Shown here: one piece after another, positions 37,549-60,945 of the stretch
Position numbering within the stretch: position 1 is the first letter of the stretch
Layout: the number at the start of each line of letters is the position of its first letter
Assembly: GCA_964187785.1 (NCBI GenBank)
Contig: OZ076409.1
Location: 18,664,001 to 18,728,000, forward strand
DNA length: 64,000 bases
Reading direction: 5' to 3'
Source of the DNA: Amphiscolops sp. MND2022
Taxonomy: Eukaryota
Made by a program: the position numbers and the translations under genes
The notes under the pieces: generated by a model
Database searches by the model: none
Seen by the model: only the letters and a program-made list of their open reading frames with translations
What the model was told of the DNA's origin: nothing

Positions 37549-40500
37549 CTAATATCTGTGTTCATCAGTAAAGTTGGGGTTGGGGTTAGGTCGAAGATTA
37601 TATTTCCCTCCTCTAGGGCTAGGATTTTCCTCATTTCTTTCATTTTCCGATATTCCGGGCACGGTAATATCTACGCCTCCTTTTGAAGCAATTTCCTCGT
37701 TTTCTAAATCATTTGTGACGTCATTTTCATTTTTCGACCCACTAGGCGATTCGCTCAGAGGGGACGACGCATCACGGTTGCTGGCCGATCTCGGCCGTAC
37801 TTCATTCTCGTTGACGTCATTGTCGTTCATTCTATCGCTGCTGCGCTCACTTTCGTTTACGCTGCTGCTTTCATTCTCGGTGACGTAATAGTCGACTTCT
37901 CCGTTCGCGGCGTCCTGTGGCAGACGCGTGGCTGTGTGTGGCCAATCATTTGTCTTCGGCTCGAATAGCTCATACTCAAAGTCCGCTTCCCATGAAATGG
38001 TATACAAATCATCTTGCGGTATTACTATCTCCTCATCAGGCTGTAATTTTTCTTCTTTATATTTGTCCTCTAATGGGGTGTTTGGAACAAATTTTTTGAG
38101 CCTGATCCGGTGCAAAATCTGCGTTTTATTCGTATTTAAACGACGCACTATATAATTGTTATTCGGTAAGGTTTTTTGGACGACAAAGGGACCAATCCAT
38201 CGGAAGTCCCTAAATGGTATTTTAGAGCCTTGACTATCCGCTTTTGGTTGAAGAACAAAACAGTAGTCTTTTTCTTGTAGCGGAGCCGCTTTGGCTTTGC
38301 GGTCGTAGTACTCCTAGTACTTCAAATACGACTGCATAATATTCTTTTTTGTCTGATCAATGAGGATTTGCGTCCTCTGCTGTAATTCTTCCGCAAATTC
38401 AGTTGTCGATAGGAAAGTTTTATTAGGGTTATTTCCTAATTTATGATCAAGGACATTGTAGGGAATTCGGCCATGAAAGACTTTGCTAGGCTCACAACCA
38501 ATACTAGCGTGATAAGTAGTGTTATAGTTGAGCACTGCTAATGGTAAATATTTGTGCCATTGACGACGATACTCCCCTGAGGCCATCTCCAGGTTGGTTT
38601 TTAAAGAGGCGTGAGTCCTTTCAAGTTTGCCAATAGTTTGCGGGTGTTTAGTAGTGGCGCATTTCAGTGTGATTCCCAATATCTCAGTAATTTCTTCTAA
38701 AAACTTTGAGGTAAATGCGGACCCCTTGTCCGTGATGAGTGTTGTTGGCAAATACGAGTGTTTTGTCATTATATCGATAATGACTTTAGCTACATTTGCG
38801 GCTGTTGCCTCAGTGAGTGGGTAGGCAAAAAGATATCTTGAAAATACGTCTATTGCAGTCATCACTGTTTGGTATCCGCCGCTGGTTGGTAAATTTGGTA
38901 ATAAGTCGATTTGCATGGCATCTTCTGGCCCTAGGTCCCATTCGGAAAAATTTAGTAATTCTGGGGTAATTACCATGTTGGGAACCCTTTTGTCTTTGGC
39001 ACATGTTTCGCATCCTTCTACCCATTTTTTGACGTGTTTTGCAATTCCTGGGTAGTAATATTTTTGGCGAATTTCCTGTAACATTTTAGAAATGCCTGGA
39101 TGGCGATGCGCTGTACCATGTATTGCTTGTAATAGTTCTTGAACTGAGTGCTTCGGTAACAGAATTTGATGATATTTGATTTGGCCGATTTCGTCATAGT
39201 ACTGTCTTGTCGCAATTTCGTCTTTAAGAACTATTCGGTCTATGTTGTTCAAATAGTACTTATACCGAATATCTTGTTGTAGGATTTCTTCAGAATATTC
39301 CTCCTTTTGAAGTTTTGCTTTCAATTGGAGCAGAATCGGGTCTTTAGACTGTTCGAGCAGTATCTGTTTAGTTCGTCGTAATTTTTGTGTGAAGTTGGTA
39401 ATTTCTTCTATTGTATTTTCCGATATGGCATCAATGTGGATGACTGACTCAGGGACCATGAGTCCTTTTTTGGATTGTTTTTTCCGTTCCCAAATTTGTT
39501 CTTCTGTTTCGTTGTCCTCCTCAGTGAAGAAGATTTGCTCTTCCTCTGACACGCCGGCCGATTGGACATTGACCTCGATCGGTCTAGTTTCTACGTCCTC
39601 TCGTATTTTCAGGACCAACTTTTCAGTGGGGTCCTTTTCCATGCGGGACAGGTAGTCTGCCTCTGTGTTGTTCTTGCCTGGAATGTGAGCTATGATGAAG
39701 TTGAACTGAATTACAAAATCACAAGCATTCCAAAGTGGCGGTGGAATTATCTTGGTTTGGAAGAACCTCGTAACCGATTTGTTATCTGTGAGAATAATCA
39801 CGGGTTGAGGTGTTCCCCAGAATATATGTCCAAACTCTTTAAATGCATAATATATAGCTAGGAATTCCTTTGCATATATCGACATTTTGAGCTGAGAAGG
39901 CGTGAAAGTTTTGGATCCGTATGCAATCGGCGCATAGGACTTTTTAACAGAAGTGTGTTTTTGATTTGGGTCGTCTTCGGTCAATATGGCGTAACCGGCT
40001 GCTGTAAAACTTGCGTCAGTCATGAGGACTAGTTGTTTGTTCGGCAGAGGTTGTTTCAACGCCAATTGACTACATCGGTCTAAATCGCGGTTGATCTCAT
40101 TAAATTGTTCAAACAGCTCTTGCGTCACTAGTACCTTCTCATCCGTTTTGAGTAATTGGAAGAAGGGAACTAGTTTTTCTGATAGTCTTGGAATATAATT
40201 CCTGTAGTAATTGAGGAAACCAAGATAGCGTTGTAAGGCCTTCTTGGACTTTGGGAATTTCGTCTTTTCCAAGAAGTTAGTGATTCTTTCTTTTTGGGGC
40301 TTTACACCTTCAGGGGTGATGGTTCTCCCTAGAAAGTCAATTTCGGTAGTGCCAAAGTGGCACTTGTGCATGGACAGTTTGAGTCCGGCTTGTCTGATAC
40401 ATTCAAAAGTAGCCCGGAGGTTCGTTATGAGATGTTCGGCATCGTTGGCTGCGATGCCAATGTCGTCCACATATTGTGCGCATTGATCTGCTTTGATCAC

Positions 40501-42204
40501 CCGATCTAAATATTCTCGCTTAAAACTGGAAAAAGCCGATAAGGCTCTGCTGAGGCCTTGCGCCAATCTGCGGTAGGCAAAGGTCCTGCTAGCAAAATTG
40601 AAAGTGAGCATTTCAATAGACCTCTGGTCAGCCATTGGGAGACAATGATAGGCCTGCGAACAATCAAGTTTGCAGAAAAGCTTTTTCCCGGCCATATGCT
40701 GTGCGGCATCCGTTAAGGTGCTGACTGGGTGATTATTATTGATATAATCGTCAGATATGAGATTATTAATTTTCCTCAAGTCAACCAGTAGTCTTAAGTT
40801 GCCATTGGGTTTTTTCTGGGCGAATATGGGGCTGGCATACTTTGAGAATGGTAGTGTCGTTATAATACCATATTTATGAAGTAAAGCCAGTTCCACCAAT
40901 ATATCTTCTTTAAGATTGACCGGGGTAGGTAAGCTCTGGCTATAGGCTGGTGAATCGTCCTTCGGGGTCAATTTGACCGTAAATTCCTCGTTGACGCCGA
41001 TATCAAATCTGTGTCGGGCGAAGATGTCGTGAAATTCTACCAAAACAGCTTCTATTTGTTTGATTTCATGCTGTTGTAGCATTGAGTCCTTCCAGTCAAA
41101 ATTGCTGAGGAATTTTCGCCTAGATTCAGCATTGTCTTGCGGGTCAAGTTTTTCTATTTCTTCGAGGTTTCGTAGCTCCCTGAGGATTCTTTGTTGGATA
41201 GGCGTATGTGACGCTTCGTCCCCTGGGTTCTCAGGTGTCGGGAACCAATACTGTTCATATTGGTCATTGTTTCTATTGGCTTTAAGGAGACTGCTAATGT
41301 AGTAAATGGCGTCTTCTTCGTTTTCGTTCAATAGATGCCAGGTGGACACCGGGTCTATTGGTCGGACATGTTTCATTTGCTCAGGAGTCATCACTGAAGA
41401 ATTTGCGATATGTAACCCTTTCTTGAGTTTGTAGGGTTGATCAGTGAAATTGTTGACATGTATGTTCATAGTCCCTTCGTGCAATGTGACTATGGCGGCG
41501 CAAAATGTGACGTCGCCTTCCTCATGGAGGAGGTCACTGGGTTGTAATATCCCCGTGACTGCATTTTCGGCATAAATCTGGGACTGTATGGAGATGACTG
41601 CAAGGTCATTCGGGGGAATGGTGATGTCTTCAGGGTTGAGAATTGGCTCCATTACATTGGAATACTTGTGGTCGGCCGTTTTTAATTGCATTGAGAAGTA
41701 AGGGAAATTGAGTATGCCTTGGCGCATGTCCAGGACGGTGTGGTTCCTCTGTAGGAACATCAGTCCAATTATGGGGCTAGACAGTTTTTCCATTACAATG
41801 AAGATTTCATGAAATTCTATGTCTCCCACCTCAAATTTTAGTTCGACAGTGCTCTTTGGGGTTTCTAAATCACCATTTGCGACCATTATTTGGAAAGATG
41901 GAGCAGGGCCTTCTTTTACTATCGACTGGGGGGCCAATAGGCGTATCTTTCTAAGGTCTGCTTCCGGTATTGCACTGGAGTGGGCTCCAGTGTCAATTAG
42001 GCCGTCTAGGGTTAACTCTCCAAAATCCATTGGGAAATAAAGCATTCGTCTTTTAAATTTGAGCCCAAGGTTTGTTGAAAGGGGAACGTAGGACGGCTCT
42101 CCTTTCTTGGCCACTAAGAGATGCAGGAAGGCCGTTTCATCTAAAAGGCTGTTAGAGGCTTTGTGGCCTTCCTGTTGTTGAGTGGCGTCTACTCCTTGTA
42201 TCAT
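37549..42204 (-). CDS. pol: G1 pol (PR, RT, RNase H, IN); one premature stop at 38314-38316
   Basis: LIDTGA, YVDD, MTDAS, HRHPG..CETC, QIDLL, ITDKG, LERTH. The frame continues past the stop (EYYDRKAKA..GPF) to 37549. Confidence 0.95.
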
Positions 42205-42222
42205 TGCATCAAAATTTGGCTG

Positions 42223-44334
42223 TCAAAGATCAATGAGGGCCCGAGACAGTGTGTTGTCTTCAATGTCTGGGTCGTCCTCGTCGTCAGTTGGAGGGTAATC
42301 TTCGTTTCGAAATTGTAAATTGGTTTTGTCATATAGTTCTTCGTCCCAGTACGGGTCTTTGCCATACTCGGGGTCATAGTATTGAGGGTTATATTCTTCG
42401 ACAGTTTGTAAGGGGCGAAAGTGAGTTTCCGATTCATTGTCGTGGCTAGTACGTCTATATAAGTATGGGTGGTCGCTATGGATAATATGTTGAGTTTCCA
42501 TGCGGGCGTTGGCCATCTGCTGCTGCCAGACAGTCGATGGCATTCCTGTGGTATCGTTTTGAGTTTGTTTATAAATAATGTTTGGTGGGTCAGATATGAC
42601 ATATTGTCGCACTGACATCTGGTTGGAAACTTGGAGTCGTGGCGAAATTAGTTTTTTGAATCGGTTTTTCGAGAAGATGAATGAGTTGAAGATGTGGTTT
42701 CGGGGCTAGTTGACTTCTTGGATGATTTTTCATCTCCAGATGTGTCATCAGCCTTATCTTCAGGACGTGTCCTTTTGGGGCGTAAATGTGCTCCAGCCCC
42801 TTTCCAGCATCTCTCAACGGGTGATTTTTCTTTCCGCAAGTAGGGCATTCTGGGTATGTGGGGCGTTGGGGCTTTTTGCCATTTTTGTCCTCCAATTCCT
42901 TCTTCTTTTTCAGTTTGGGGCAGCTCTTATAAAAGTGGCCTGTGGCTTTGCAATGAGAGCATTGTGCGTCTTTATTGGTATTTATGCCGTTCGACAGCAA
43001 ATTGTTGTTGCTGGTAGACGCAGAGGCCATGGTGGCCATTGGTAAGTCATCAGACTCCTCCAATGCATTGAGTTCAAGCTCTCTTTCAAGATGAGCGACA
43101 ATTTCTTCGTATGTACCATTCTCCAGGCGGGCCATGTTGACAGATCGTTTTAATTTTGGGGGAGTTTTGCGTATAACAAGCTGTCAATCATACTTTTGGC
43201 ATTTTCGCCAAATGCTTTTTCTGCCCCCTGGTTCAGTTCTTCCAAGAAATCTGGCAATTTCATGGTGTTCGGGTTGAACGTGAGCCGATGCCATTTATGT
43301 TTTGCCGTTGCTTGGGATTCCGGTTTGACGTATTTCCTCCTGAATATGACCAGTACGTCCTCAAGTGTTTGACGGTTAATTGAGTTTATGTTCCTGAAAG
43401 TTTGTAGGGCCCCTTTCCTGAGCAAAGAGTGAAAGTGGTTAATTTTCATTTGCTCTGTCATGGCCTGTTGCATTTTGATCATTGTGTGGAACAGGTCTTC
43501 AAAAAGTTCAAATTTTTCACTTTTCCCGTCAAATGTCATTGGTGTGGTTTGGACTGGTCGGATGGTCATCGTTTGGGGTTTGTTTTGCAGATTGACTAAT
43601 ACGTCAGCCAATCTGTTGAGCGGGTCCTGGGTTAACTCTGGGACCTCGGGGTCTGGAGCTGGCAGAGTCGTATCCAGAGAGACATTGTGGTTAGATTGTT
43701 GTCTCTCCAGGTTTGGAATTGAGTGGATTCGTCCGTTCAGGATTTCGGGAATTTGCTGTTGGGTGTCGTTAACTCCTGTCACCATGTAATGACTACGACC
43801 TGCAATGTCTCTTAAATCGCATGCAGACTGTGAGTCCTTCTTTGCAAATTTTGATTTAAACCCGGATGAACATTCCCTGTTTTCCTGGCTATTTGGCGAT
43901 ACACTGGCCTCAGTGTCCCTGTTTCCTGAAGAGGACATAGAACTCACAATGTTCTGGATTTCAGGAATAACTCTTTCTGCAATGGCATTACTGATAGCTC
44001 TATTTATTTGGCTATGCATCATGGACATCATTGAGTCCATTTCTTGTGATAATCTGAGGTTGAATTCATTTGAAAAGGTCTCAAGGGATTGTCTAATATC
44101 ATCTTGCCTAGGAAGGTCGTTTTCACAAGCAAAATTAGTATACTGATTTCCCAAACGTTCATTCGACTCTACGTCTCCCTGTACTGATGATTGTTCAATA
44201 GTATCAGTTAATTCTCTTTCTATGGGATTACTAGTCCCATTTCCTAACATCACGTCCATATTTTCTATATCGGACAACATGTCCATCTCTCTAGATTTTC
44301 TTGCCCTTGCTTTCTGGCGTCTGGTAGAAGGCAT
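42223..44334 (-). CDS. gag: G1 gag, frameshifted in this copy; start codon lies inside the 5' LTR
   Basis: ORFs 43150-44334, 42590-43135, 42648-42848 and 42223-42618. FDGKSEKFELFEDLF capsid-like region; knuckles CSHCKATGHFYKSC and CPTCGKKNH(P)VERC. Confidence 0.85.
43771..43784 (-). other. G1 primer-binding site (tRNA-Leu-like)
   Basis: Minus strand TGGTGACAGGAGTT directly after the LTR end ...ATTACA. It resembles the complement of tRNA-Leu 3' ends; the tRNA identity is inferred. Confidence 0.7.
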
Positions 44335-45482
44335 AAGAGGTTATTGCAAGATTAAAGAATTTGAATTGGAATCTTTGAGCTTGCAAACAGTATTTTATTC
44401 GGTTATTCAACAACGAACTGACTGTGACTTGTCATAGGAAAATTATATCCCCGAGACCACGGGTCCCGGTTATTTATAATTGACCTTTGCATGACATACA
44501 TAATATTGAGAGTCATCAGTCTAATTTTAGTAACAAACATTCTATAAATAGACATGTAAGACTACGTGTCTTTACAAACGTAATAACATGTTTCTAAAAA
44601 TAGTAACTGCCATGACGTAATTCATTTACACACGTATATGTATATGCACGCATATAAATGTAGCAGCTGCTTTCATGATTGTTCATGTGGCCCTTCAGGC
44701 CATTCAATTGTATTTCATCAGCAACACTACATGTAGAACATTTCATGTTAATTACATGTAATAGGTATACACAAAATGGTACATAAACTCATGGGTCATC
44801 ATTTACAGCTTTCCATGGCATAAATTACTCATCTAATCCTTTACTCAAGGTATTTTGGGAAGGAAGCAAAGATGGGGGGGAAAGGACTGGAAGTCCTTTT
44901 GTAATCTCAGAGATGTAGTTTAATCAAAGCGTTTCTAAAGTAGCATCGTTTCTAAAGTAGCGCACTGCTATCTCTAGTATTCGCACCAGCTTATATTCAA
45001 TTTTGGACTCAATGTCCACGCGCCTTTGTTTGGTATAAAGACTGTGTCAGTTTGGCGGCATATGGCCTTTGAGTCTCTTAATTTAGAATACAGCACGGGA
45101 ATGAATACAGCACAGCAAATAAATGAATAGCGTCCTGTGATTGGCTGATTTTAATTGGACTGCTTGTCTGCGCTGACAGGAGAGGAAACACTTTGAACGC
45201 GTTTCCTCTACCTGTACGCCTCGGTGTCCAATTTAAAGCACATTTAAGTATAATTACATGCTTTATCGCATAACTAAGAGCAATATTATTATCAAATGTA
45301 TGGAATTACATAATACAATAATACAAAACAGTTCATCACAAAAGTTCTAATAATAGTTCCTTTGGACTTCCTGGCTCAAATCTCTGTGCCTTCTCATTCT
45401 AATGGGATTGTTCCGGGTAAAGCCCTGCAGTATCCATATGCAATTGTATACCAATTTCCATCGCAGGCGGCCGTCTGCGACA
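43785..45482 (-). repeat. G1 5' LTR (1698 bp)
   Basis: Minus strand TGTCGC...CATTACA, followed by the PBS; direct repeat of 29831-31413. Confidence 0.95.
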
Positions 45483-45962: not shown

Positions 45963-47374
45963 AGCAATGAGAAGCAGGAATGTTGGATAAGAGTTGAATT
46001 ATGAGAGTTGTGGTACAACTAAGCAAGAATATAAGTATTGTAGAGCAAGCAGAGTATGTAAGTGTTTTGTAATAGTTGTAGCAAATCGTGTGTCTTAGTT
46101 GGTAGCCTTCTCACCAGACCGATGGTAAGACGCAATTCTTACCATCGCTTCATCCTCATTGGACGTCGGGTAATGTTCTAATTAGCACTTGCTCACGTGA
46201 CCGGTTGTTTCGCATGTCGCAAGAGGGCTACCAATTAGCAATTGCGCAATAACACAATTCAAATCAATTATCATGAATATATAATGAACTAATGCTAGCA
46301 GACGCTCTCTGAATCATGATAGTTACTGCAATTGCGTTAGTTTAGTGTTTAAATGGATAGAATTCAGATTCAGAGGTATGGGGATGTATGAATGATGATT
46401 TACTAGCACTAAATCGATAAAATGCAAATTACAACAATTTTTGTCGTTTATTCATCGTTAAATTGATAAAAATGTAAAATATCACAAGTTTTGTCGTTCT
46501 TCCATCGTTTTCAGTAGTTGATCACGTTAGTATGGCGGTAGATGAAAAATAGATGAAATGAGTCTAGTCGGTGGTTCGTATGATCAACTAGATGTGAAAA
46601 CGATGAACCGTGTGAACAGGAGAGAGCATTTCGACAGGTGGGAGAGGTTACATCGCTTTATCATCGTCGGTGACTTTCGTCTTATGCGATGTCTAAACGA
46701 TGAAAGATTTTCATCGTTTCTTCATCGTTTGTAGATTTGAGTTGAACTGCTCAGTCATTAGCGATGTACAAACGATGGAACATTTTCATCGGTTTCACAT
46801 CGTTGTGAAATTAGCGCAAATTAAAGCAGCAGCAAGTTTCATCGGTTTCACATCGTCAATTCTAAATGTTCTTTCCTGGCTGTGTTACGTGGCCAGACGA
46901 TGTAATATAGATGAAACTAGTTTACTTTGTACTAATGTAAAGGATTTAGCACAGATTTCATCGTTTTATCATCTTCAATTGATTATTGGGCGGAATTAGG
47001 CTTGTTACGTTAGTTTGCTCTGAGGCAGGAGCTTCCTAACAGTGTTAGCTCTATTTTCTCTATTCAGCGGTCCATTTTGACCGAGAAAACTACTTCCCTT
47101 TCTCGTGACAAGCCATTAAAAAATAAAATAGCATCATTTGCTTATTAGCACGATCATGAATTGCGGACAAGCGGAACTAGAATGCTCATTATTAGATAAG
47201 TAAATAGCTCAAAATCTCAATGGGGAATAGGGGGTTAGGTACAAGTAACGTAGGGTTGCTCACAACCATAGATCTTATTATATGACATCATATTGCCCAT
47301 ATCTAAGTACATAAGACATATTATTTACATTACAGATATTTAGTAGATTATATTTCCATCATGCTGGCATGACA
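45631..47374 (-). repeat. Putative G2 3' LTR (1744 bp)
   Basis: Minus strand GGGAG|TGTCATG...TCCAACA. Contains a Gag-like N-terminal ORF that ends just past the LTR boundary, as in G1. The partner LTR is not in the window. Confidence 0.7.
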
Positions 47375-49475
47375 CTCCCGGGGGGGGATTTGGAAGAGGA
47401 GTGCAGGGGCCAAATGTGCAGAGGATGGTTGTCGCAGCGTGGGCTTTGACATGTTCCTTCGCTGGTCTCAGGGGAGTGGCCTTCGTTGGTTCTCAATGGT
47501 TTTGTGCCTTCGTTGGTTCTGTCTCATTTGTGTCTTCTCTGAGAAGGAGACGTGTTTCATCGGTTTGGTATCTGGTGTGAGCTCGGTTATTTCGGTTAAG
47601 TTTGGACGCGTCAGTTCTAGTTCTTGGCCCGTCGATTGTCCGCAGATCGGCTTGAAAATAGCTGTCAGGAGTGATTTGTAGAATCTCGCTGGAATTTGTT
47701 CACAATTGGAATTGGTAGCGTCGTTTCGTCTGATAGATTGGAGAGAATGAATAACACGTGACCGGAGAGCGGTGAACTTGTGATGGAGAGTTGAATAAGC
47801 GTGAACAAAATATTATGTAATAACTTGCGTGGTGGAGCGGCAGTAATGCCAACTGTGTGCGAGACGGAAACGTTCAGTTATCTTGATGAGTCATTAAGTA
47901 AATAAAGTAGCCACAATTTCGAGTGCGTCTTTCCGCTGAGTGTGTAAATCATTCAAATTGCTAACAACGCTGGCAGCTGCATCTAACACTTTGAGAAAAT
48001 TTCCACAGTATTTTGAGTAAATTGGTCCATTCAAACTGGTGTTTCCTCTGCTAGTTGGTGGAAGGAGGCAGTGAAATTGAATCAATATTGAAGAAATTTG
48101 AGCAGATTTATTTGTCTTTTGAGAGTGTATTGTTAGATGTAGTCGAAACGTTTTGCTTCTTTGATATTTTAAGGTTGAAATCGATCTCATATCACGGTTG
48201 ATTAGGCCATTATATTTGTCGATTACTGTTGATTTCGTTTCTTCAAATTGAGTTCACATTTACTATCCTTCGTTCAATCGTGTCGTGTTATTTTTCAGAT
48301 TGCAATCGTTGTTTCCATTTGTCATCGTCAAGATGTATGACGACCAACATATGAATCCTTTCCATGATTCTAACCCAATTCGTTAGTTATTCTTTCGTCA
48401 TCTTATTATATGACATCATATTGCCCATATCTAAGTACATAAGACATATTATTTACATTACAGATATTTAGTAGATTACATTTCCATCATGCTGGCATGA
48501 CACTCCCGGGGGGATTAGGAAGGGGAGCGCAGGGGCCAAATGTGCAGAGGATGGTTGTCGCGGCGTTGGCTTTGACAGTGTCCTTCGTTGGTCTCAAGGG
48601 ATTGGCCTTCGTTGGTTCTCAATTGTTTGGTGCCTTCGTTGGTTCTGTCTCATTTGTATCTTCTCTGAGAAGGAGACATCTTTCATCGGATTAATGTCGG
48701 TTGTGAACTCGGTTATTTCGGTTAAAGCTGGACGCGTCAGTTCTAGTTCTTGGCCCGTCGGTTGTCCGCAGATCGGCTTCTGTGGCTGTTAGGAGGGGGT
48801 GTAGAATCTCGTTTTATATCTGGAGTGCGTTGGCAGAGGTGAGGTTCATTGTTCGTTGGTTCATTGTGGAGGACGAAATAACATGTGAAAAAAAATTGAA
48901 TGAACTGTCGTTGGAAACTCACAGTAAGCGTGAATGAGAATTATGTAATATTGAGTGAAAAGCTGCGGTAGATATTCCAACTGTGTGCGTGGAGGAAACA
49001 TTAAGTTATCGCAATGAGTCATTAAGTCAATAAGGTAGCCACAATTTCGAGTGCGTCTTTCCGCTGAGTGTGTAAATCGTTCAAATTGTCAACGACGCTG
49101 GCAGCTGCATCTAACATTTTGAGAAGATTTGCACTTGATTTTTAGTAAATTGTTGTAGTCAAACTGTTGTTTTCCTCTGCTAGTTGGTGGAAGGAGATAA
49201 AGAATTGGCATCAATTTTGAAGAATTTTGATCAGATTTTTCATGTTTTTGACTTTAGTATTGTTAGATGTAGTCGAATTGTTGGTTGTTCCTTTGATTTC
49301 GTGAGATAATGTCGGTTCCATATCACGGTTGATCAGGCCATCATATCTGCCGATTATCCATGTTTTCTTTTCGTCAAATTGATTTCTTATTAATCATCTA
49401 CCTTCATTCTTGATCGATTTGTTTTTCAGATTGCAATCGTTGTTTCTGCTTGCTATTGTCAAGATGTCTGACAAC
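47273..49475. repeat. ~1.13-kb diverged tandem duplication spanning the LTR edge, PPT and cargo-gene 5' region
   Basis: 47273.. aligns with 48401.. (tcttattatatgacatcatattgccc) through ttttcagattgcaatcgttg..gtcaagatg at ~48292-48337 and ~49423-49466. Confidence 0.9.
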
Positions 49476-52400
49476 AGAGATTTGTATCCTGAGTTGAATC
49501 CGTTTAGTGAGTCATCGCTCTGTCATTGTTACTACTGTTATGGAATTGGGGCAGCTGTAATGTTCGTCATTATTTGTTTGGCCGGTGGAGAATGGATGAC
49601 ACCATCTGGGTCTGGTTTGACGCCATCTGGGTCTGGGAGCCCGAGGGTGTATACTGAACTGACAGGGGTGGGTCCGATCCCGCCTGTGCAGACTCCCATT
49701 GTACACCATCCACTTGTGCCCATGTATCCACAGAGTGAGTCTTCTACCGTCAGTCTATCGTTTCCATCGTTTATTCATCGTCAGACAATCACAATGTTAT
49801 TTCAGTGTACACTCCCTGGCAGCAGTCTCTTGGGTCGCTGTCATTGGGCTGGTACGACGGTTATTTGCGGAGCACAGTTCGTGAAGAGCTGGCTAATTCC
49901 AGTAAGTGAAAAGCTATGTTTCTGTTTTCGTGATTAATAGGTCTTGTTATGACATTAAGACCAGGTCGCATATGTTTCATCTGTTTCCCATCGTGGCCGT
50001 GGTAGCGATGTCAAAACGATGAATACTGTTGCTTTTAGTCCCGAGAGAGATGAGAGGCATGGAGAGGCCTGTCATTCGTCAGGTGGTGTCCGTTGCGTGT
50101 GGTCCCGAGCAATCAGGGACTCCTCATGATGTGGCGACTCAAACAAGGCGGGCATTCTGTATTGGGTCGTCTTCTAGTAGTGAAGGAGAGCCAGGAGCAG
50201 CCACTACTGAAGATCCAATGGAGGCTGGAGGCTCAAGTGTGGAAGCCATAGTGGGTGCTGCCGATCCGTCAGAAATTTCTGATGGCAATGTCGAGTCGGG
50301 TGTGTCTGTCGTCGGCAGTCCTCTCGTGGGCAGTGCAGTAGCTCCCAGTGGTCGTGCTGTTCGGTCAGGTAAACTAAACAGCTTCAACAATCATGTGATT
50401 TACTGTAATTCCGAGTTGTTATTGTTACCTTATTTACTTAGGTTGCTATCTGAGGTTTTTATTACGTAGTCTAGTTTGGTTGTTTGATTTGGTCAATTTT
50501 TCTTTCTTTTTTGTTTGTGAGTTTTCAGTGGCGTTTTCGTGCCCTTTTGGTACGTCGGCTGACTATTTTTGTAAAGCTTCAAGTTTTCGTCGTTTTAGAC
50601 TTTTCAGATGCGTTTTTTTGTGAAAACATCGTTTTTTCATCCTTTTACATAAGAAAAGTGTTGTTTGAGTTCGTCCCCTGTTAGAGAGGGGCTTCATCGT
50701 TTTTTCATCGGTTTTTGTTTTAGTCGCAAAGAACAGCATTCGATCCAGTTGGTTTCAGCATCCGTACGCAGGGATGTTTCTGGGGTTCGCCCGGACTCAC
50801 AGGTCGTCTGATGTGTACGTGCGATGTCTCTTGTGTCGGTGTGATTTGAAAGTCGGGAGCCGTGGCATTTCGACATTCTTAGAGCATTGTCGCGGCGTCA
50901 TTCATCACAGACTGGATTGTTTAGTTCGTTCGCGGCGTGGTCTCTTTCTACGTCGCCGGACCGGTGCAGTGATGAGTGCTGCAGAAGCGGCTGACATGGG
51001 AGAAGAGTTGCGTGGTTTGGCCGTGCCAGACGTGGAGCTATGTACTGCTTTCTCAGTTCGTGAGGTGTTCTCAGTTGAAGCGCGGGGTGGCAGTATTTGG
51101 GATTCCGTGTGTGTCTGAGGTGCTTGACAATGCGAGAAGCTTGAGATTCTTCTTGTGCTTCGTGGTTGACGCATTATACCGTGGTGGAGATGTCCCTGCT
51201 CTTACCCATCTGTGGGACTCAGTTGCAATGACTGACGTTGGATATCCGAGCCTATTGAGAGGCGGTTCTCGAAAAGAAGATGTTATTGTAAGTGCATGTT
51301 ACATGTTTTTCATGTGTTACATGTGGATATATATGTTTTCGTGATGACTTGTACCGTTACCTACTATCGTTCGTGATGTTGTTCGATTTTGTGTGTACTT
51401 CAGGCAGTACTGCTCTTCGGAATGTGGCCTTACGTGGTGCGGGCAATTTCAGCGGTCCTGAGTGCTGGAAACTACGTTGGTTCGTACGTTGAGATCGATC
51501 GGGACATGGTGCGCTGTTCTGCGACAGTGGCTGAGTCAGCTGTCCTGAGAGGGTACGTTCTGTTCGAAGTGGAGTCGACGGGTCAATGGGAACAGCGCGT
51601 AGCAGACTGGATAGCGAACTATTGGTGTTGCATGTTGGAAGAAGTCAGGCCAATCCGAATCAGTTGTACTGTAATGCCCTCTTTGCGCGGATTGACGGAA
51701 GGCGAGACTGGCTCTGGGGGTGTGCTACTGGATCCAGTCCGATTAGAGTCAGTCATGCGCGTGGTGACTTCAGCTGGGGTGTCTGTGTTCCCTGGTCAAG
51801 ACGTTCATGTTGTGGCGAATTTTTTGCTGATAAAGTTGCGTGAATGTTTGAGTGATCCAATCTTGACGGCTTGCCCAGCTCTCGTTCGAGTGAGTGTGAA
51901 TTATTATCTTTTCACTAAACGTTGCCCATATGTGATTTTAGTTTTTTTTTGGGGGGGGGGGTTGGACGTAGAGAGTGTGAGCAATTTTTGTTTTCGTTCG
52001 TTGTTATAATTGGTTGTTTTAGTGTATAATCTCTGGTGAATTTTCAAATTGGGAGATTGTGGCCGTGTTGGAGGAGCTACGTGTGTCATGGGAGAGTCTA
52101 GTTGAGGCGGTTGGATCGATTGAGTGGCAGTGTGGACCTGTTGCGGATGGAGCTACTGGTGTTGCAAGAGTCTGGGCTGTCTCTCAAGTTCCATGCAGTG
52201 GGAATGGTGTATAGATTTGGTTAATATAGTATTTGTGTTTGTCTAACTTTAATTATTGTAACTATTAATCTGGTCGCTATGTGACTGGTATAGGTTTCAT
52301 TGGTAGTACATCGTCGATTTGCTCTTTTAATTTTATTTGTGAATAAGTTTCATCGGTTAATCATCGTCTTTTGTAAATTTGTTCTTTATCGTTTGTATGG

Positions 52401-53406
52401 CTGTTTTAGTGCTACAAGGGACGCAACAGACCTTCAGTGAGCGGCTCTATCGTGGTATTTTCGGTGTTGTTGAAATCTTGGGCGTAGTACGCTGTCTCTG
52501 TCTGATGGTGGCTGAAGAAGAAGCAGTTCCGCAGACATATGAGTTGTATCGATGGGGCAGTTTGAGCTGTCTAATTTGCGGTTGGGTGGAGGAAAAGAAG
52601 CCTTAATGTTTCAAACATTTGCCAGCCATCGTTCTAGTTACACGTGTGGGGGGGGGGGTTTACCAGCATGCTGTTACTATTGTTGAAGAATTTGTTATAA
52701 CAGTTGCCATGAAATTGTTGAAGTTATCTCCATTGTCTGATCATGTCAACCGAGCCCTGGCCTTTGGAGTCCCGATATGTTGTTGCATGGTCACGTTGGT
52801 GAGATGGAAGAGCTAATGGGCTGTTTCTTGGAAATGTTGGAGCGGAATGGGCGTGTGAATTATGCTGCTAGAACGGCCATGCTCGAGTCTTTCGTGCGAT
52901 TCATTAGACGGTTTAGAGATGAACATGCTGATGATTATGACAGAAGCACTCACGAAAGTGATCTGTGGCAATATGGGTCTGCTGACGCTGCTTTGTGTCG
53001 ACTGATGAAATTGTGTTTCTGTGTGAGCGGAAGTGTCAATCAGAGCCACAGTTTCGTGAACATGAGTTTACCTTCATTGTCGTCGGAGGACCTCTGTAGT
53101 GTGTTAAGGACAATTTTGAGCTGGTGTCAGAATCAGGGTGTGAGAGGTCTACAGAGCATTCCAGACGGACTGGTATCGGACAGTAGTGATGCTATTGGGC
53201 GGGTGGTAGAGTTAGCAGCAGTCAACATGGACGATTTATGGGATGAGGTCCGGAGTCAGCGACTGACGAATACAGAGAGTCCGTTTTCGAGCGAATGGGT
53301 CTTACTGCTAGTGGAGATCGGGCGGCCAGTCCTGAGATTGGAAGTGAACATCGTTTTTGAAACAGTTTGTTTTTATGGCGTTTGTGACTGTGAGTATTTT
53401 GTATGA
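49464..53406 (+). pseudogene. G2 antisense multi-exon cargo gene, homologous to the G1 cargo gene (frameshifted)
   Basis: Exons include 50039-50368, 50724-51287 (Zn finger W..MF...VRCLLC..G..TFLEHCRGVIH), 51404-51889 and ~52410-53400. The GT/AG junctions 50368/50724 and 51287/51404 are in phase. Confidence 0.7.
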
Positions 53407-54166: not shown

Positions 54167-55180
54167 AGATGTGTAAGCGATGGAAAATTCCCATCGTAAT
54201 CACATCGTTACAAAGTCTTGCGTGAGAGTAGTGTTGTTATTGGCGGCAATGATTGAATCGGTGAAGTATATTCATCGGTTCGTCATCGTTGATTAAGTGT
54301 TGTGGGTATTTTTGTTTGACTTCTACAAGCGATGGGCAATCGATGGTAAATTTCCATCGTTTGTCCATCGTGTTACATTTTCAGATTCATTGTGGAGCTT
54401 GGAGTAACCGATGGAAGGTTTCCATCGTTTTGGCATCGTTGTGGTGAGCTTGTTTGTCTAGCCTGATTGTGGATGCAGCGATGTGAGAACGATGAAACAT
54501 TTTCATCGTTTCTCTATCGTTGGTTATTGACTGGTTCATTTTGGGTTGGAAATTCTAGAAGTGATGAGTAACCGATGAACTATTTTCATCGGTTTTCCAT
54601 CGTCACCTAATAACTAGGTAATTTTGTGTTGTGGAGTGGTGGCGATGAACTAACGATGAAAAATTTCCATCGTTTTTTCATCGGCGTGTGTCTATTGGTG
54701 CGTTAGCTTATGAATAGTAGTTGTATCTTTTCGGTGTCCTCAATCAGGGCGGTAATGAACCGAATGTCAACCCAAGGCAAGTCCTGTGGTCTGTTGACGA
54801 TTGAGGATTATTCTCTCTTGACTGAAGGTAATGTAGAGAGAAAGTGGATGTAGAAGTGATGGAGAAAATCCATCTCTTTTACATATTGATGTGATAATTT
54901 TTGTGCAAGGGTGATGGTTTGTCTAATGTCCATCGAGTAGTCGGTAATCACTGATTGAGTTTTCATCGACTGAGTGTCGTTAAGCAGATGTTAACACGAG
55001 GCGAAGCCTACGAATTATTAACAGGCAGGTCGTGGAAACTCTGTATGATTTTGTGGCATGGTCGAAGAGAGGATGGGGATGAGAAAACGATGGGTGTGAA
55101 CCATCATTAAACTCACTTGAATTTTATGTGTTTTGTAAGCGATGTGGTACCGATGGAAATGTTCCATCGGTTTTACATCG
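54167..55180. promoter_or_regulatory. Cluster of 41-bp dyad motifs CGATG-N6-CGATG-N9-CATCG-N6-CATCG
   Basis: Copies start at 54167, 54330, 54479, 54562, 54643 and 55140, with degenerate copies near 54247 and 54398. Also present at 46687 and 46762. Regulatory function is inferred. Confidence 0.55.
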
Positions 55181-55331
55181 TTCCTGGTAATTTCACTGTT
55201 TCTTCACGATGGAGTGTTATTTCACCATCGTTTTGATGTGAGATTGTCGTTTACATGTTTTCCACTCGTTTTCTACTGCAGAGTGGTGTTTGTTTTGCGT
55301 AGAGCGTTTCGAGCAGTTGAGATTTCATGAA

Positions 55332-56495
55332 TTAGAAAGTCTGAGTAGCGTTTCGGCTGGGGGTTTTCGCGTAGACTATATTTGCTTTTATTGTCCTTGT
55401 TGCTATCAGATTTGGCGTTTCGTCATCGTTCACCTGTTGGGGTATCTCGGTGTTGGTAGGTATTTTTAATGGTTCTGGCGGTTTCGATGTGTCTTCATTG
55501 ATCTCTTGTGGAATTATCTCGTCGTTTTCATTGAACTGCACCTGTGGGACATTTTGAGGTGGGTCGTCTATGACTATTTCCGGTTGTGGTGTTAACGACA
55601 GTCGGTTCGGTAGTCGATTTAGCGGTCTGTCGCGTCTGATTGCTTGTCTGTAATCTGGAGATTTTAGTCGAATGACTCTGTCAACTGGTGTCTCTTCATC
55701 AGTTTCTGGTTCATCCGGTTCCGAGGTTGTTTCAGGTTGTCTCGGTACGTGCGAGTGGAAAATATTAGAATCTTCGGTGCGATCCGTGTCAGCGTATACT
55801 GGTTGGTTACCAATGTCTACGTCTTTTACAGGGAACTCTGGTTTGAAAATTTTCAATCGTATGCGATGAACGCATTGTGTCTTGAACGTTCCTACTTTCC
55901 GAATGATGTAGTTACTTTCGGATAGCACTTTCATCACTTTGAACGGACCCTTCCAGTGGAAGGTCTTGAACTCTTCTTTACAACCCTGAGAGTCGTATTT
56001 GGGGTCAAGTAGAAAAACAAGGTCGTTCACTTTGAGAGGTTGGGCTTTGGCTTTTCTGTCATAGTAAGCTTTGTACTTGTGGTACGCAGCTACTATGTTG
56101 TCGGTGTTGTCTCGGTAAATTTCGTTCATGCGGTCTAAGATTTCGTTGACGTCTCCGAATTTGGTGTCGACTCTTCTTTCAGGGTTAGAGTATTTTAGGT
56201 CCAAAGCGTTATATGGAGTGCGTCCGTGAAAGATTTCAGTTGGTGAACATTTCAGAGAAGTGTGGTATGTGGTGTTGTGGGCCATGATTGCTATGTCGAC
56301 ATAGCGGTCCCATTGTGGTCTGTCTACGTTTACATGGATTTTTAAAATCTTTTTAAGTTTTGCATGACTTCTCTCGACCAAGCCTATAGTTTGTGCATGT
56401 TTTATCGTTGCATGGGAGATTTTTATGCCTGCGATTTTTGTGAGTTGTTCGAACAGTTCAGCGGTGAAAACGGATTTTTCGTCAGTGAGGATGTG
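55332..56495 (-). CDS. pol: G2 integrase, C-terminal part (downstream of the BEL insertion)
   Basis: HILTDEKSVF...QTIGLVERSH...HNTTYHTSLKCSP...YYDRKAKA...WKGPFKV. Confidence 0.92.
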   Translation of the reverse strand, partial: HILTDEKSVFTAELFEQLTKIAGIKISHATIKHAQTIGLVERSHAKLKKILKIHVNVDRPQWDRYVDIAIMAHNTTYHTSLKCSPTEIFHGRTPYNALDLKYSNPERRVDTKFGDVNEILDRMNEIYRDNTDNIVAAYHKYKAYYDRKAKAQPLKVNDLVFLLDPKYDSQGCKEEFKTFHWKGPFKVMKVLSESNYIIRKVGTFKTQCVHRIRLKIFKPEFPVKDVDIGNQPVYADTDRTEDSNIFHSHVPRQPETTSEPDEPETDEETPVDRVIRLKSPDYRQAIRRDRPLNRLPNRLSLTPQPEIVIDDPPQNVPQVQFNENDEIIPQEINEDTSKPPEPLKIPTNTEIPQQVNDDETPNLIATRTIKANIVYAKTPSRNATQTF

Positions 56496-57419
56496 TGTTG
56501 GCGCCAGTCATCAGCAGGCAAAGAAAGTCGATTTGGAACATGCTGGTTGAGAAACAAGACTTAAACTCTTAAAAACTTAGATGAAAATTTGAAGAAAATC
56601 CAATCATCACAATTCTTTAAACCCCCCCCCCCCAAATGGGTTTTCTCCAAGACTATTAATCATAGAGCCATGAAACTTGGCACAAATACGCAAGTACCTA
56701 ACTCAAACACACCGGCCAAGTTTCAATGTCATCCACCCATTATAACCCCCTTTACCCCTCACATGTGTAGTATTCAAGGTCATTGAGACAAAAATGTGAA
56801 ATTTGTTATTTACCCATATGACCACATTAGAATGTAACTCTGTTGAATTGATGATAGTTACATAGTGTAAACATGCTTTAGAGCCCACCTAACCAACATG
56901 CCAAAACCACCACATAGTTTGTTTACTTAGCCAATAACTTCATTTTATGCTTTAAATGTCATTTATTTATACAACATATTTCAACTTATATTTGCTCTAT
57001 ATTTACTGTAGAATTGTAAACCACATTTATACCATTATTAGATAGAGATTTTCTCCACTGAATAGCTATAGTCAAGTTGGGTCTCAGGACCGCGAGACTA
57101 ATTAATCTACTTCTCAATCTTCACAACTTTTCGCTAGAGTCAGAGCGACTAAGTAGCTACTCTCATAGTTGGAGAGCCGGAGCGCGTGAAGATACTGTGA
57201 GGGAAGTGTGTGCAGGATCACATCGGATCCAAATCAGTGCAAAGAGGAATCGCAGGAGATTCCACGGGTCACATCGGACCCATCAAGCTAAAAGATACAG
57301 TCCTTTAAACACGAAAAACCAGGAATTGTTTAGTGACGGTCCACAGCACTAAGCAACGGATCAGGGCGGCGTAAAGCTTGTCAAGCCTCAGCGCAGGATA
57401 AAGGCAAGCAGCCGTTACA
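56496..57419 (+). repeat. BEL B 5' LTR (924 bp)
   Basis: TGTTGG...GTTACA; matches 60869-61789. Confidence 0.95.
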
Positions 57420-57421
57420 TT

Positions 57422-57438
57422 TGGTCCGCCGACCCGGA
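57422..57438 (+). other. BEL B primer-binding site (tRNA-Tyr-like)
   Basis: TGGTCCGCCGACCCGGA, 2 nt after the LTR; similar to the TGGTCCTTCGAGCCGGA Tyr-type PBS. Confidence 0.7.
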
Positions 57439-57584
57439 CCACTCGTTGGTGGACGACCCGGACTGCTCGTTGGTGGACGACCCGGACTAGAAGAAGAAGA
57501 CGAGGACGAAGGCGACTCGTTGGTGGACAACTGAGAAGATCGCCCAAGAACTGGATCTTGGAGTCTCTAAGTTTGTGTCTCTGG

Positions 57585-57790
57585 GATTGGGCTACTAAGT
57601 CTCTGGGAGATTGGGCTACTAAGTCTCTGGAAGATTGGGCTACTGTGTCTCTTGGAGATTGGGCTACTGTGTCTCTGGGAGATTGGGCTTTTGTGTCTCT
57701 GGGAGATTGGGCTACTGTGTCTCTGAGAGATTGGGCTACTGTGTCTCTGGGAGATTGGGTTACTGTGTCTCTGGGAGATTGGGCTACTGT
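57585..57790 (+). repeat. 24-bp tandem repeat in the BEL B leader
   Basis: About 8 copies of gggctactgtgtctctgggagatt; related degenerate units occur in the copy A leader (~19780-19985). Confidence 0.9.
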
Positions 57791-58143
57791 TACTCTGTGA
57801 GCTTGGGCTATTGTGACTCTGGGTGTTTGGACTATAGTGACTCTGGAGTTGGGACTAGTGTGTACTCTGGGAGTTGGGCTTTAGCGGCACTCTGGAGGTA
57901 TTTGTGCATCAATTCTATTTTTGAGACGAATTGTATTCTTTGGGATCGTATTCCTGATTGAAGCAAAGATCTGGTCTAAGACGTCATTGCAAGTAAATCC
58001 ACCAAGTAAAGCAAAGGGATCAAGTCAGAGGGACATGATCCACTGAAACAATCAAGTTCGTCAACGAAGGCAAGTATAACCGACAGTATTGGGTTGATTC
58101 TTCAAGAATTGGCGATTGATTACCAGATTGAGCAGTTGACACT

Positions 58144-60945
58144 TTGTATCTGAGAAATTGCAAAGTTGGGATAAGTGAAAAAGCCTACAAGAAACAATTG
58201 CGAAGTTCGAAAGCCCTCAGTGAAACAAAAGAGTCATATGAACAAATGAAAGCCAAAAAGAAAGAAAAGCAACTGATGCAGCACCCTCGAATGGCAATTG
58301 TGTTTGAGGAAAGAAACACAAAGCAGAGCCAACAACTGATGGAGCTCAGACCGAAAGATTTGGAAAATGCGTCAGATTGGTACGCGTGGTGCCTTTATTG
58401 GGATATTGTACCCCTACATGTGAAAAAGCTCCATACATTGGTAAAAGACTTGGATGACAAGCTCGATGAGGAAGGAGCTGTTGTATCCAAAAGCAAATTG
58501 ATTGATCGGGTAATTGAATACCGCGAGAGAAGACAGGCGTTGCTGTTCTGTGTAGACTTTATGTTGAGTCTTACAAATGAAGAAACGCAAAGACAGCTCA
58601 GTCGAAGTGTGACTGAATGGGACGAATTCTTTGCGAAACTGGAATCGAGTTGGGGATATTGGTTCCCCGATGTGCAGCAAATGTTGAAGTGTCCAATTGA
58701 TGGGACAAAAGAGTTAAAACTGAGTCAGATGACAAATGGAACATCTGCATACGCAGCTAAGAGGTGCCCTCGCACAAGAAAGTTGAGGCAAAGACGTGTC
58801 CATCAGGCAAAACCTAATTGTGTAAAGAAAACAGCTAGTGAAAAGGAATCACTGACACGGTCAAGAAAGACCAAGGACCAAAAAAGTTGCTGTGGTATGA
58901 GAGACAGCATATCTGAAGTAGAAAACTCAATCAACGATGTGACATCACTACTCGAAGAAAACAGTAAGGTGTCTGACGTAACAATCCTGACGGACAACAG
59001 ACCAACAGTTAACACGAAGTGGTCTAATGGAGATCGACTGTTTCCTCTAGCATTAGAGAAAGCGGAAGATCAGAAATCGGATGAAGTCCAAGGCCAAAGA
59101 AGCGAGACTGGACAATTGGAAAAAGAGGAACTGGGCAAACATCCAAAACTGGTTGAAACCAGAAGCAACAGAAGCTATGTGATATCGAAAAGTTCAAGTG
59201 CTAGACGAGTTCTTCATTTGAAAGTAAAAGCTCAGAAAGAGCAAGAAGAACTGCAAACCCGACTCGAGAAACTGAAGCGTGAAGCAATACAAATGGAAAT
59301 AGCTGACTTGCATGAACAGCTTGCCCGCAAAGCCAGAATAGCTGAAAAGGAAAGAGAAATAGCGGGAGTGTCGAGCAGTCAGGGGACTAGCTTCCCAAGT
59401 GTCTCATCAGTCGACAGTTTCACGGAAGACTCAAGATGCATGGCTGAGACGGAAACAGTCGAAGACGGCGCTAAGTCCAATATTGCACTATCAGTTCATT
59501 TGAAATCAGAGAATGCAGTGAAATTAGTTCACGAAGGAAAGTTCTCCGCGCATAGGAGAGACTCAAAACCTCCAACAGAAGCCGATGAGCAAGCTGATGA
59601 CGGAACGTGCAGAAATGAAGCAATATCACAACCAGACGTGAAACTTGCAAACCAAGGAACCTCGCAGCTCATCACAACGGAATGTATACAGAAATTGTCA
59701 GAAACATTCATTGTAGACAACGGTCGGCAAGACGTCCGTTCAGAAACCCTCCTCGTGGATACCAAACAGGTTTTGGAAGAAGATATTCACTTGGGCATGA
59801 GTGAGCATTCGATGAGTCAAACAAAGGAGAACTTGAATCACACAATGGCAGAAACAAGGAAGGAGCATAGATTCTTATCATTCGCATCAAGCAAACAATC
59901 TTCGGAAGAATTGAATGTGAAATTGGAGCTGCTGCAAGAGAGTGCAGAAAATACCGCCGTACAACAGGACATACAACAAGGGAAAATATTCGAAGTGACG
60001 ATGTTTCATGACAGTACTCTACTTCTTGAAGAAGGAAACAAATGATTTGAATTCGACGAAAGTTATGGATTTGTGAATGAGCAACAATTTGCACTGCTTG
60101 ATGATTGTAATGAAGAAGCAATGTATCGAAAGCTATGCCATGTTGCAGCAAAACATGACGAACCCGTTGAATGCAATGCCAAAGGTGAAACAGGTACCAT
60201 GATTGCAACCTTTGGAAAGAAATTTGATTTTGACTTCAAAATAAGCCTTGTAGAAGAAACTATCCCGAGTAATAACAATGAGTGGAACCCTCGGATTGGT
60301 AATGGAAACTCTGGGATGGACGCGGTGGCACAGGCTAACGGTATGGATAAAACTCAATTGAGCAAAAGCTACCGCAAGCGACCGAAGAAACGAGCTTGGA
60401 AGTTTGAACATACCTCAATCCTATTACATGGAATGGTCGAATGTGTTCAATTGACAACTGGCATCCTAAATGCAAAGATTGTGATAGATGAATTTGCAGA
60501 TGAAATATCGCTAATGGAAACGCGATTGGGTTCTTCAAAAGCACAAACAACAACAAGTTCGGAAAGTGGGCGTTTCATAGGGCCGGCTGTATCATGGGAA
60601 GAAATGATGATGCAACTTCAATTTTTTGGAAAATGGAAAAAAGAAGGAATTAGACAACTTGAAGTCAATGATTTGGTTTGGATAGTGGATGAAAGTGTAA
60701 AAAGAGCACACTACAAGATGGGTATAGTGTTGGAAGTCTATCATGGAAGCGATGGGCGAGTGAGATCAGCGCTGGTGAAAACGGAAGATGGAAAACTCAA
60801 AAGACCAGTAGTGAAACTGGCACCCATGTTCTACGAAAGTGTTTTCGGGAGAAAAACAGGGCCGGCAATGTTGGCGCCAGTCATCAGCAGGCAAAGAAAG
60901 TCGATTTGGAACATGCTGGTTGAGAAACAAGACTTAAACTCTTAA
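58144..60945 (+). CDS. BEL B long ORF (~930 codons, single in-frame TGA at 60043-60045): partial Gag-like coiled-coil, unassigned middle, BEL Pol C-terminal tail
   Basis: ORFs 58144-60045 and 60073-60945 share a frame. RSNRS..SKSSSARRVL..RIAEKEREIA resembles copy A Gag. The end, VNDLVWIVDE..GKLKRPVVKLAP, resembles the copy A Pol C-terminus. Confidence 0.6.

Follow-up and report, generated by a model that had tools for sequence, protein, structure and literature searches.

The closest described counterparts of the two genes analysed here, G1 and G2, are the antisense open reading frames (aORFs) found in Gypsy elements from plants and fungi (Grande gene23, RIRE2, Retand TRP28 and Boty), which occupy the same slot and strand and are kept across families. 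The Grande aORF is nuclear and is driven by a promoter of its own (PMC7264820, PMC11963269), and TRP28 ORFs are described in Retand (PMC11963269), according to the portions of these articles available to us; in the available portion of PMC11963269 the word 'intron' does not occur. The aORFs are reported to be without similarity to other transposable elements and to be of unknown origin, and the same 2020 review considered capture of another transposable element, found no sequence support for it, and regarded antisense spliced transcripts as worth seeking (PMC7264820). HTLV-1 HBZ and APH-2/3/4 are examples of a spliced antisense gene near the 3' LTR that encodes a nuclear regulator (available part of PMC10186651). 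Bdelloid rotifers likewise have animal LTR elements with captured extra ORFs, whose ORF3 types comprise env, DEDDy, GDSL, coiled-coil and TM; 'transposase' and 'intron' are absent from the part of that article available to us (PMC5408684).

The window that we analysed, a 64,000-nt stretch of an Amphiscolops sp. MND2022 contig, contains two Gypsy elements, and in both copies from which we read this context, those holding G1 and G2, a gene lies on the opposite strand between pol and the polypurine tract (PPT) and 3' LTR. In contrast to the plant and fungal aORFs, G1 and G2 span several kb, contain three or more apparent spliceosomal introns and resemble hAT transposases. They also differ from HBZ and the APH proteins, which are small, bZIP-type, retroviral and not derived from transposases, whereas the genes described here belong to Gypsy retrotransposons. 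Pfam searches of the cargo proteins did not match the TRP28 domain (PF04195), and a search of the openly accessible literature found no account of a hAT-derived, multi-intron spliced antisense cargo in Gypsy.

Element 1 lies on the minus strand, and its pol encodes protease, dUTPase-like, RT, RNase H and integrase domains, which is the Gypsy order (Pfam). Its two terminal repeats are 98.6% identical, and, as judged by the PR-RT-RH-IN order, the two LTRs and the PPT, element 1 is a Ty3/Gypsy LTR retrotransposon. The left repeat continues into a second gag start, which blurs the outer ends for the reading of a target-site duplication, and the inner LTR end and primer-binding site were not located in the window, which contains no tRNA. 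G1 (33388-37317, plus strand) occupies the stretch that separates the pol end from the 3' LTR, and it adjoins, back to back, a further sense ORF of 273 aa that has no convincing Pfam match. The features of element 1 and G1 are as follows.

29868..31413, minus strand: 3' LTR-type repeat, beginning TG at 31413, with a run of about 400 nt into the second gag start
31414..31424, minus strand: polypurine tract adjoining the 3' LTR, a purine run ending GGAG before TGTC
31325..32146, minus strand: extra sense ORF of 273 aa, with its stop inside the 3' LTR; cluster of 70 members
33330..33385, plus strand: probable G1 intron of 56 nt, GT...AG, immediately before the ATG at 33388
33386..35047, plus strand: G1 exon of 1662 nt, encoding a long N-terminal stretch of low complexity, a basic NLS-like motif, a BED-like C2H2 finger (at about 34650-34750) and a helical region
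35048..35187, plus strand: G1 intron 1 of 140 nt, indicated by a Val 25 residues past a conserved Trp in relatives and by joined forms
35188..35673, plus strand: G1 486-nt exon, with RNase-H (DDE-type) core and the start of a helical insertion
35674..35746, plus strand: G1 intron 2 of 73 nt, indicated by a Val after the exon in relatives and by relative P0346, joined at the junction
35747..35881, plus strand: G1 exon 3 of 45 codons, with matches in P0278, P0346 and P0370
35976..37317, plus strand: G1 last coding part, with an open frame at 36127-37317; cluster of 9
37549..44340, minus strand: gag and pol, from Pfam and ORFs, with stops and frame changes
43937..45482, minus strand: 5' LTR-type repeat, from the repeat match

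The sequence-only reading had placed acceptors of apparent 5'-UTR introns at 33385 and 49429, and both are present in the sequence. The motif at the 33385 acceptor recurs in 55 of 72 long relatives, with an AG-compatible residue pair in 55/55, and this acceptor likely closes the 56-nt intron and looks conserved in relatives. Because a Met after the motif is absent from 22 of these 55 relatives, the designation of the 33330-33385 intron as 'UTR' is uncertain. An upstream coding exon joined at 33330 was ruled out, as it would lack an in-frame ATG, and a 35-nt intron at 36123-36157 was considered and found to have mismatched phases. The G1 copy is disabled: it has suffered a deletion and a frame change upstream of 35048, its donor at 35882 is non-canonical, and stops interrupt it near 36072 and 36124.

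Element 2 has the domain order RT-RH-IN, as expected for Ty3/Gypsy, and its pol is interrupted by an LTR element nested at 56496-61789. The pol proteins of elements 1 and 2 share 37% identity across 686 columns and 42% across 144 (57% in the last 82). The pol may resemble that of Gypsy elements from acoel worms. LTR elements dominate acoel genomes, according to the available part of PMC9911081. The probable LTR of element 2 is called from one edge (GGGAG before TGTC, 48503/48502), the 5' LTR lying outside the window; G2 (49464-53406, plus strand) lies between pol and this edge. The probable LTR contains an 81% duplicate of the G2 5' region (47272-48359), in which the G2 acceptor at 49429 is also kept (near 48299), as well as two CGATG-N9-CATCG sites. 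The features of element 2 and G2 are as follows.

46000..48502, minus strand: probable 3' LTR, with a TG start at 48502 that is repeated at about 47374; left edge approximate
48503..48512, minus strand: polypurine-tract-like GGGAG before TGTC, read from the sequence
49430..50368, plus strand: G2 5' part, with acceptor 49429, ATG 49464, an ORF of 157 aa (cluster of 14) and a Ser/Glu-rich stretch
50369..50723, plus strand: probable extra G2 intron of phase 1, GT...AG with matching phase, absent from G1
50724..51287, plus strand: G2 exon that holds the zinc finger, beginning near 50825, and the stretch leading up to intron 1, from profile scores against G1-type relatives
51288..51403, plus strand: G2 intron 1 of 116 nt, with its donor 24 residues past the conserved Trp, as in G1-type relatives
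51404..51889, plus strand: G2 486-nt exon, homologous to the G1 exon by profile scoring
51890..52022, plus strand: G2 intron 2 of 133 nt, indicated by CPxLxR then Val in relatives, with the acceptor in the sequence
52023..53406, plus strand: G2 downstream exons, with a probable intron at 52159-52409 and the last open frame at 52741-53406
54178..55169, no strand assigned: array in the interval from G2 to pol, made up of seven CGATG-N9-CATCG palindromes
55332..63976, minus strand: pol (RT, RNase H, integrase; Pfam), in segments 63976-61751 and 56507-55332

The G2 copy is also disabled, by a frame change in 50724-51287 and by a stop and frame change before 52741; some of the breaks in the two copies could be assembly errors.

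It had been claimed that both genes contain a 486-bp phase-0 exon, and the lengths, AG/GT borders and open frame were all confirmed. The exons at 35188-35673 (G1) and 51404-51889 (G2) are each 486 nt long, in phase 0, with stop-free translations of 162 residues that end in CPELTK and CPALVR, respectively; both are preceded by ...ttcag and followed by gtatgg (G1) or gtgagt (G2). One of six frames is open in each exon (stops per frame in G1: plus 0/7/9, minus 6/5/9; in G2: plus 0/12/4, minus 6/6/3). When the plus strand of the entire window was filtered for open, phase-0 stretches of at least 300 nt bounded by AG...GT, four were recovered, two of which are the 486-nt exons. The claimed absence of obvious nucleotide similarity also held, with 31% identity in a plain comparison and no BLASTP alignment between the two exon proteins.

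As judged by profile scoring, the G1 and G2 exons are homologous. A joint gapped profile alignment that covered the exon and the 60 residues immediately upstream of intron 1 scored 195.6, compared to 84.4 ± 11.7 for 150 column shuffles (maximum 127), none of which reached the real score (z 9.5). Against G1-type profiles, the G2 zinc finger scored z 6.2, in register, and the segment before intron 1 scored z 3.5 (13/20000); an HMM of the G1 finger alone, searched against the window, did not pick out G2 (E 3-3.5), whereas direct profile scoring does. Within the exon, the best register was -1 across G2 residues 4-100 (bootstrap 99.8%, z 4.5) and 0 across residues 111-161 (z 6.5), and the G2 exon carries an additional residue close to junction 1 and lacks one around residue 110-115. 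The equality of 486 and 486 thus reflects near-conservation with a +1 and a -1 codon that cancel, so that the claimed identity of exon length is correct as a number and partly a coincidence. Junction 2 (3') falls at exactly the same residue in both genes and junction 1 (5') within one codon.

At the level of single residues the resemblance is low: 25/161 are identical, and hhalign returned E-values of 0.007 and 0.0004 with low probabilities (5% and 35%). In favour of homology, nucleotide identity is higher at codon position 2 (39%) than at positions 1 and 3 (26% and 32%). Predicted models of G2 and of the relative P0371, built separately, show 11 helices and strands in the same order, the G2 model itself being unreliable (pLDDT 35.6). 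Comparison of the last exons of G1 and G2 gave a score of 69, reached by 9/500 shuffles, and pairwise comparison of exons 3 and 4 gave no significant alignment (288 and 337 of 500 shuffles); for exon 4, the frame taken for G1 may have been the wrong one. The shared exon structure proposed for the two genes therefore stands for the 486-nt exon and its junctions but not throughout, because G2 has at least one probable extra intron, which would lie at 50369-50723, where G1 has a single exon of 1662 nt.

A search with the G1 finger region identified 120 clusters at 90% identity among 1203 candidates, some of 112-137 members, all of them unnamed and without Pfam annotation. A profile search identified 1053 clusters at 50% identity, of which we examined the best 150. 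Among 379 collected proteins, 59 match the exon profile. The basic NLS-like motif was seen in 115 collected proteins. The exon is exactly 162 codons, with no net indel, in 18 of 19 end-to-end relatives of the G1 exon (the remaining one has -1), and pairwise identity across 21 near-full exon rows is 18-91%, with a median of 36%. The residue after the exon in G1-type relatives is Val in 36/39 (Ala in 2, Gly in 1), as a GT donor read in frame would give, and beyond the intron 2 donor the mean identity falls from 0.40 to 0.11 (31 rows). At intron 1, a Val is found 25 residues past the conserved Trp in 113/115 motif-bearing relatives, near-identical cluster members being counted. A search with the G2 exon gave a separate set of 14 clusters from 364 candidates (53-100%), and 25/35 aligned G2-type rows end in CPxLxR followed by Val, the other 10 lacking the motif.

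We found no related loci in JGI metagenomes or IMG/VR. A single GTDB match (41 residues, E 1e-4) was taken as chance, and a search of longer proteins with the last exon gave no match, that length class being the wrong one.

Seven of the 59 matching proteins (P0237, P0273, P0321, P0334, P0365, P0371 and P0373) run exon 1 straight into the 486-nt exon at the predicted junction, and P0346 has this exon joined to exon 3 at the predicted junction. In a tree of 40 rows the joined records fall in five places, with weak backbone support (58-90) and P0365 too short to include. Such records could represent copies without introns, cDNA or spliced gene models, and are not necessarily real molecules.

Together, the indel-free exon, the donor-compatible Val and the drop in identity past the donor support the conclusion that the family has been under long purifying selection. 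The sequence-only reading had derived selection from conserved intron positions; that argument is weak on its own, because the life cycle of an LTR element would let antisense introns be inherited passively. Its claim survives as selection on the protein, which shows in an exon kept indel-free (18/19 relatives) and open in frame across a family of median 36% identity.

What that earlier reading did not recognise is that the protein appears to derive from a transposase. We folded the joined relative P0371, which shares 24% identity with the G1 exon and 32% with the G1 finger, using 126 sequences, and obtained a model with pLDDT 75.9 and pTM 0.43 in which the exon is predicted to form a helix, three strands, a helix, a strand and helices, that is, an RNase-H core. 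As in hAT transposases, a helical insertion comes after this core in the model. In a Foldseek search of the PDB with this model, the top 12 matches were all Hermes (best E 1.4e-4, probability 0.97; the best match has 321 columns, TM-score 0.22 and 11% identity), followed by retroviral integrases at E 0.015 and above, and the top BFVD match was a hAT-family protein (E 1.8e-3, 358 columns). VIA-align gave Z 5.5-6.7, including ISCth4 at 6.7 (rmsd 3.9, 100 aligned), glucokinase at 6.5 (3.4, 97), integrases at 6.0-6.6 and Hermes at 5.7 (5.0, 103), which confirms an RNase-H fold for the model and does not separate families, so that hAT is a probable assignment among the DDE families.

Hermes-type hAT transposases have the same order of BED-like finger, helical region and RNase-H core as the cargo protein. 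The C-x2-C...H-x5-H finger is conserved in 155 rows, and Pfam assigned it to zf-BED in 1/126 and to another C2H2 model in 36/126 (best E 5e-5). An Atlas match to DUF659 (0.76), a domain that we assume to be linked to hAT, is a lead only, and an Atlas search with the G1 finger region gave no usable match. Pfam found no hAT domain in the family proteins, and sequence searches of the PDB with two profiles gave 0 matches.

The predicted active site differs from that of hAT transposases. In exon 3, where we presume the Hermes R318-W319 site to fall, the RW pair is absent from G1, P0278 and P0346. Essential Hermes residues are D180, D248, R318, W319 and E572, according to the available part of PMC6027215. 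When the catalytic site was mapped onto the family from secondary structure, strand 1 of G1-type rows carried Glu in place of Asp (34/38 at columns 27 and 29, with Asp at column 29 in 1/38), strand 1 of G2-type rows carried Glu at column 30 in 11/13, and the Asp after strand 4 was absent from 40/40 G1-type and 14/14 G2-type rows, an Asp lying two residues further on in 10/12 G2-type rows. The last exon had no Pfam match in a search for the region of E572 and the C-terminal dimerisation domain. Compared with hAT transposases, the cargo protein would thus have Glu at the first site, no second Asp and no RW pair in exon 3, and its gene lies inside a retroelement with no evident terminal inverted repeats, the pairs seen around G1 and G2 (the 25 longest of 59 and the 25 longest of 72) being short and imperfect. 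The best reading of the model and the mapped residues is that the cargo protein is a catalytically dead, domesticated hAT-type transposase and not an active one.

We propose that one intron-bearing hAT-type DNA transposase gene entered a Gypsy element in the antisense slot that separates pol from the polypurine tract and has travelled with that element ever since, losing the catalytic residues and keeping the NLS-like motif, the BED-like finger and the RNase-H scaffold. That G1 and G2, with the anatomy described above, are descendants of one such gene is in our view very probable; for the whole explanation, including a role that serves the element, we estimate a probability of about 0.6. An antisense promoter on the 3'-LTR side would give rise to a spliced mRNA, while the RNA that is packaged and reverse-transcribed would be the other strand, so that every round of retrotransposition would copy the antisense introns without change. 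That a dead transposase persists in hundreds of copies calls for a vehicle and a reason, and the simplest would be a nuclear DNA-binding job for the element. The protein would be a nuclear, dimeric, sequence-specific DNA-binding factor for its own element, most likely an activator or anti-silencing factor and possibly a repressor or an integration tether.

A candidate target in element 2 is the palindrome CGATG-N9-CATCG, which occurs nine times, with one fixed spacer, in the non-coding DNA of this element, seven times between G2 and pol and twice in the probable LTR. Its half-sites number 33 in 53410-55330, against 3.4 expected, and 19 in the probable LTR, against 2.4 expected; element 1 contains no comparable motif array. 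The palindrome would suit a dimeric binder, and could alternatively form RNA hairpins. VANC, an element-encoded anti-silencing protein of VANDAL transposons, is a proposed binder of repeated motifs in its own element. Element 2, with its array of repeated motifs, resembles this system, whereas element 1 lacks such an array; binding by the cargo protein is a candidate only, and VANC belongs to plant DNA transposons and is an unrelated protein.

Among the alternatives, the one that survives best, which we nevertheless consider unlikely, is that G1 and G2 are hitchhikers, separate insertions of hAT-like DNA transposons into two Gypsy elements, with their conservation stemming from life as a DNA transposon. 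Nesting is common in the window, as the element at 56496-61789 illustrates, and the genomic context is seen for two copies only, but with the catalytic Asp missing throughout both families such insertions could not move themselves. The same slot and strand were moreover occupied twice, and no clear inverted repeats were seen among the 25 longest pairs shown per flanking region. Weaker points in the same direction, in which the contig of the window is itself counted, are that 8/9 last-exon contigs are equal in size to first-exon contigs and that one G1 cluster and the sense ORF overlapping the LTR have 3 of the 15 listed contigs in common.

It is also doubtful, and a shade less probable, that a host gene domesticated from hAT, which we would liken to ZBED, was captured with its introns, the element copies being by-products or serving the host. 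A dead catalytic site combined with a kept finger and an NLS-like motif is typical of domesticated transposases, and the joined records could stem from host transcripts. However, a family of more than 1000 clusters at 50% identity whose exon length does not vary is better explained by selection acting across many element lineages than by a single master gene, and transduced genes usually occur in one or few copies and in the sense orientation (PMC7264820).

We regard as improbable the proposal that the cargo restrains its element, with an antisense transcript (through double-stranded RNA) or a repressing protein limiting copy number. Silencing by double-stranded RNA has been raised for antisense ORFs (PMC7264820), and HTLV-1 HBZ, which is spliced, antisense and nuclear, lowers viral expression (available part of PMC10186651); an effect of RNA only would not keep a 162-codon exon indel-free, a point that leaves a repressing protein untouched. 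Least credible is that the two exons are unrelated and equal in length by chance, as the missing BLASTP match, the few identical residues and the low hhalign probability might suggest, a reading largely refuted by profile scoring, with three collinear segments whose best scores each fall in register or directly beside it (z 6.2, 3.5, and 4.5 plus 6.5; z 9.5 when joined), and opposed by the common order of helices and strands in the two separately built models.

Our preferred explanation, an hAT-type transposase gene domesticated by a Gypsy element, bears on the open question of where the antisense extra genes of LTR retrotransposons come from; the cargo here has a traceable hAT-like DDE source, contains several apparent introns and belongs to a very large family without a name. 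As a speculative extension, a whole radiation of animal Gypsy elements may have turned the transposase into a spliced antisense accessory gene, and its dimeric product may bind operator-like palindromes of its own element (CGATG-N9-CATCG in element 2), activating it or shielding it from silencing; if so, precise intron loss in several lineages would be a record of recombination with the spliced antisense message. If the explanation is confirmed, one class of mobile element would have domesticated another, which would explain the presence of ordinary introns in a retroelement and would offer a protein-DNA pair for testing.

Elements 1 and 2, the two minus-strand Gypsy retrotransposons that carry the antisense cargo genes G1 and G2, contain ORFs and a domain match at the following window positions:

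31325-32146, minus strand: sense ORF of 273 aa downstream of pol in element 1, with its stop codon within the 3' LTR
40500-41650 (approximate), minus strand: dUTPase-like Pfam match in element 1 pol
49464-49937: first ORF of G2, 157 aa, in a cluster of 14

The 273-aa ORF belongs to a cluster with 70 members, and a Pfam search with it returned no convincing match. The dUTPase-like match, which lies between the protease and RT, is weak (E 0.03). The 157-aa ORF, which may be a separate small gene, encodes a patch of Cys and Tyr residues as well as a hydrophobic segment. The related proteins P0312, P0342, P0275 and P0249 have the exon that precedes the 486-nt exon joined to the middle of the latter, or are rearranged; these are either deletions or odd gene models.

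Further repeats and LTR elements in the window are:

4026-5269: CCATCGGTGG-rich repeats, tandem and inverted
13823-19655: satellite with an 84/168-bp unit, ~70 copies
20336-26993, plus strand: fragmented BEL/Pao-like polyprotein, from translations judged by eye
56496-61789: nested LTR element with 925-nt LTRs that are 99.2% identical

By eye, the nested element is also BEL/Pao-like; no RT was found in it, and its flanking duplication (~12 nt) is above the usual length. The LTR at 26066-26993 is related to its LTRs. Nine CGATG-N9-CATCG palindromes of fixed spacer occur in the non-coding DNA of element 2 (54178-55169 and 46698-46791), where the half-sites are enriched ten-fold, and their CATCG core is also present in the CCATCGGTGG-rich repeats.

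In both elements, a gag-like start seemingly lies downstream of the 3' LTR, a placement that is certain for element 1 (29832-31413) and a guess for element 2 (45623-46018). This arrangement would seem to reflect either tandem copies with a common LTR or unusual terminal repeats. The 5' region of G2 is itself duplicated, with 81% identity between 47272-48359 and 48400-49490. The initial 100 nt of this duplicate, corresponding to the LTR start, are 97% identical and the remainder 60-90%, a sequence pattern that looks as if a template switch had occurred between related elements.
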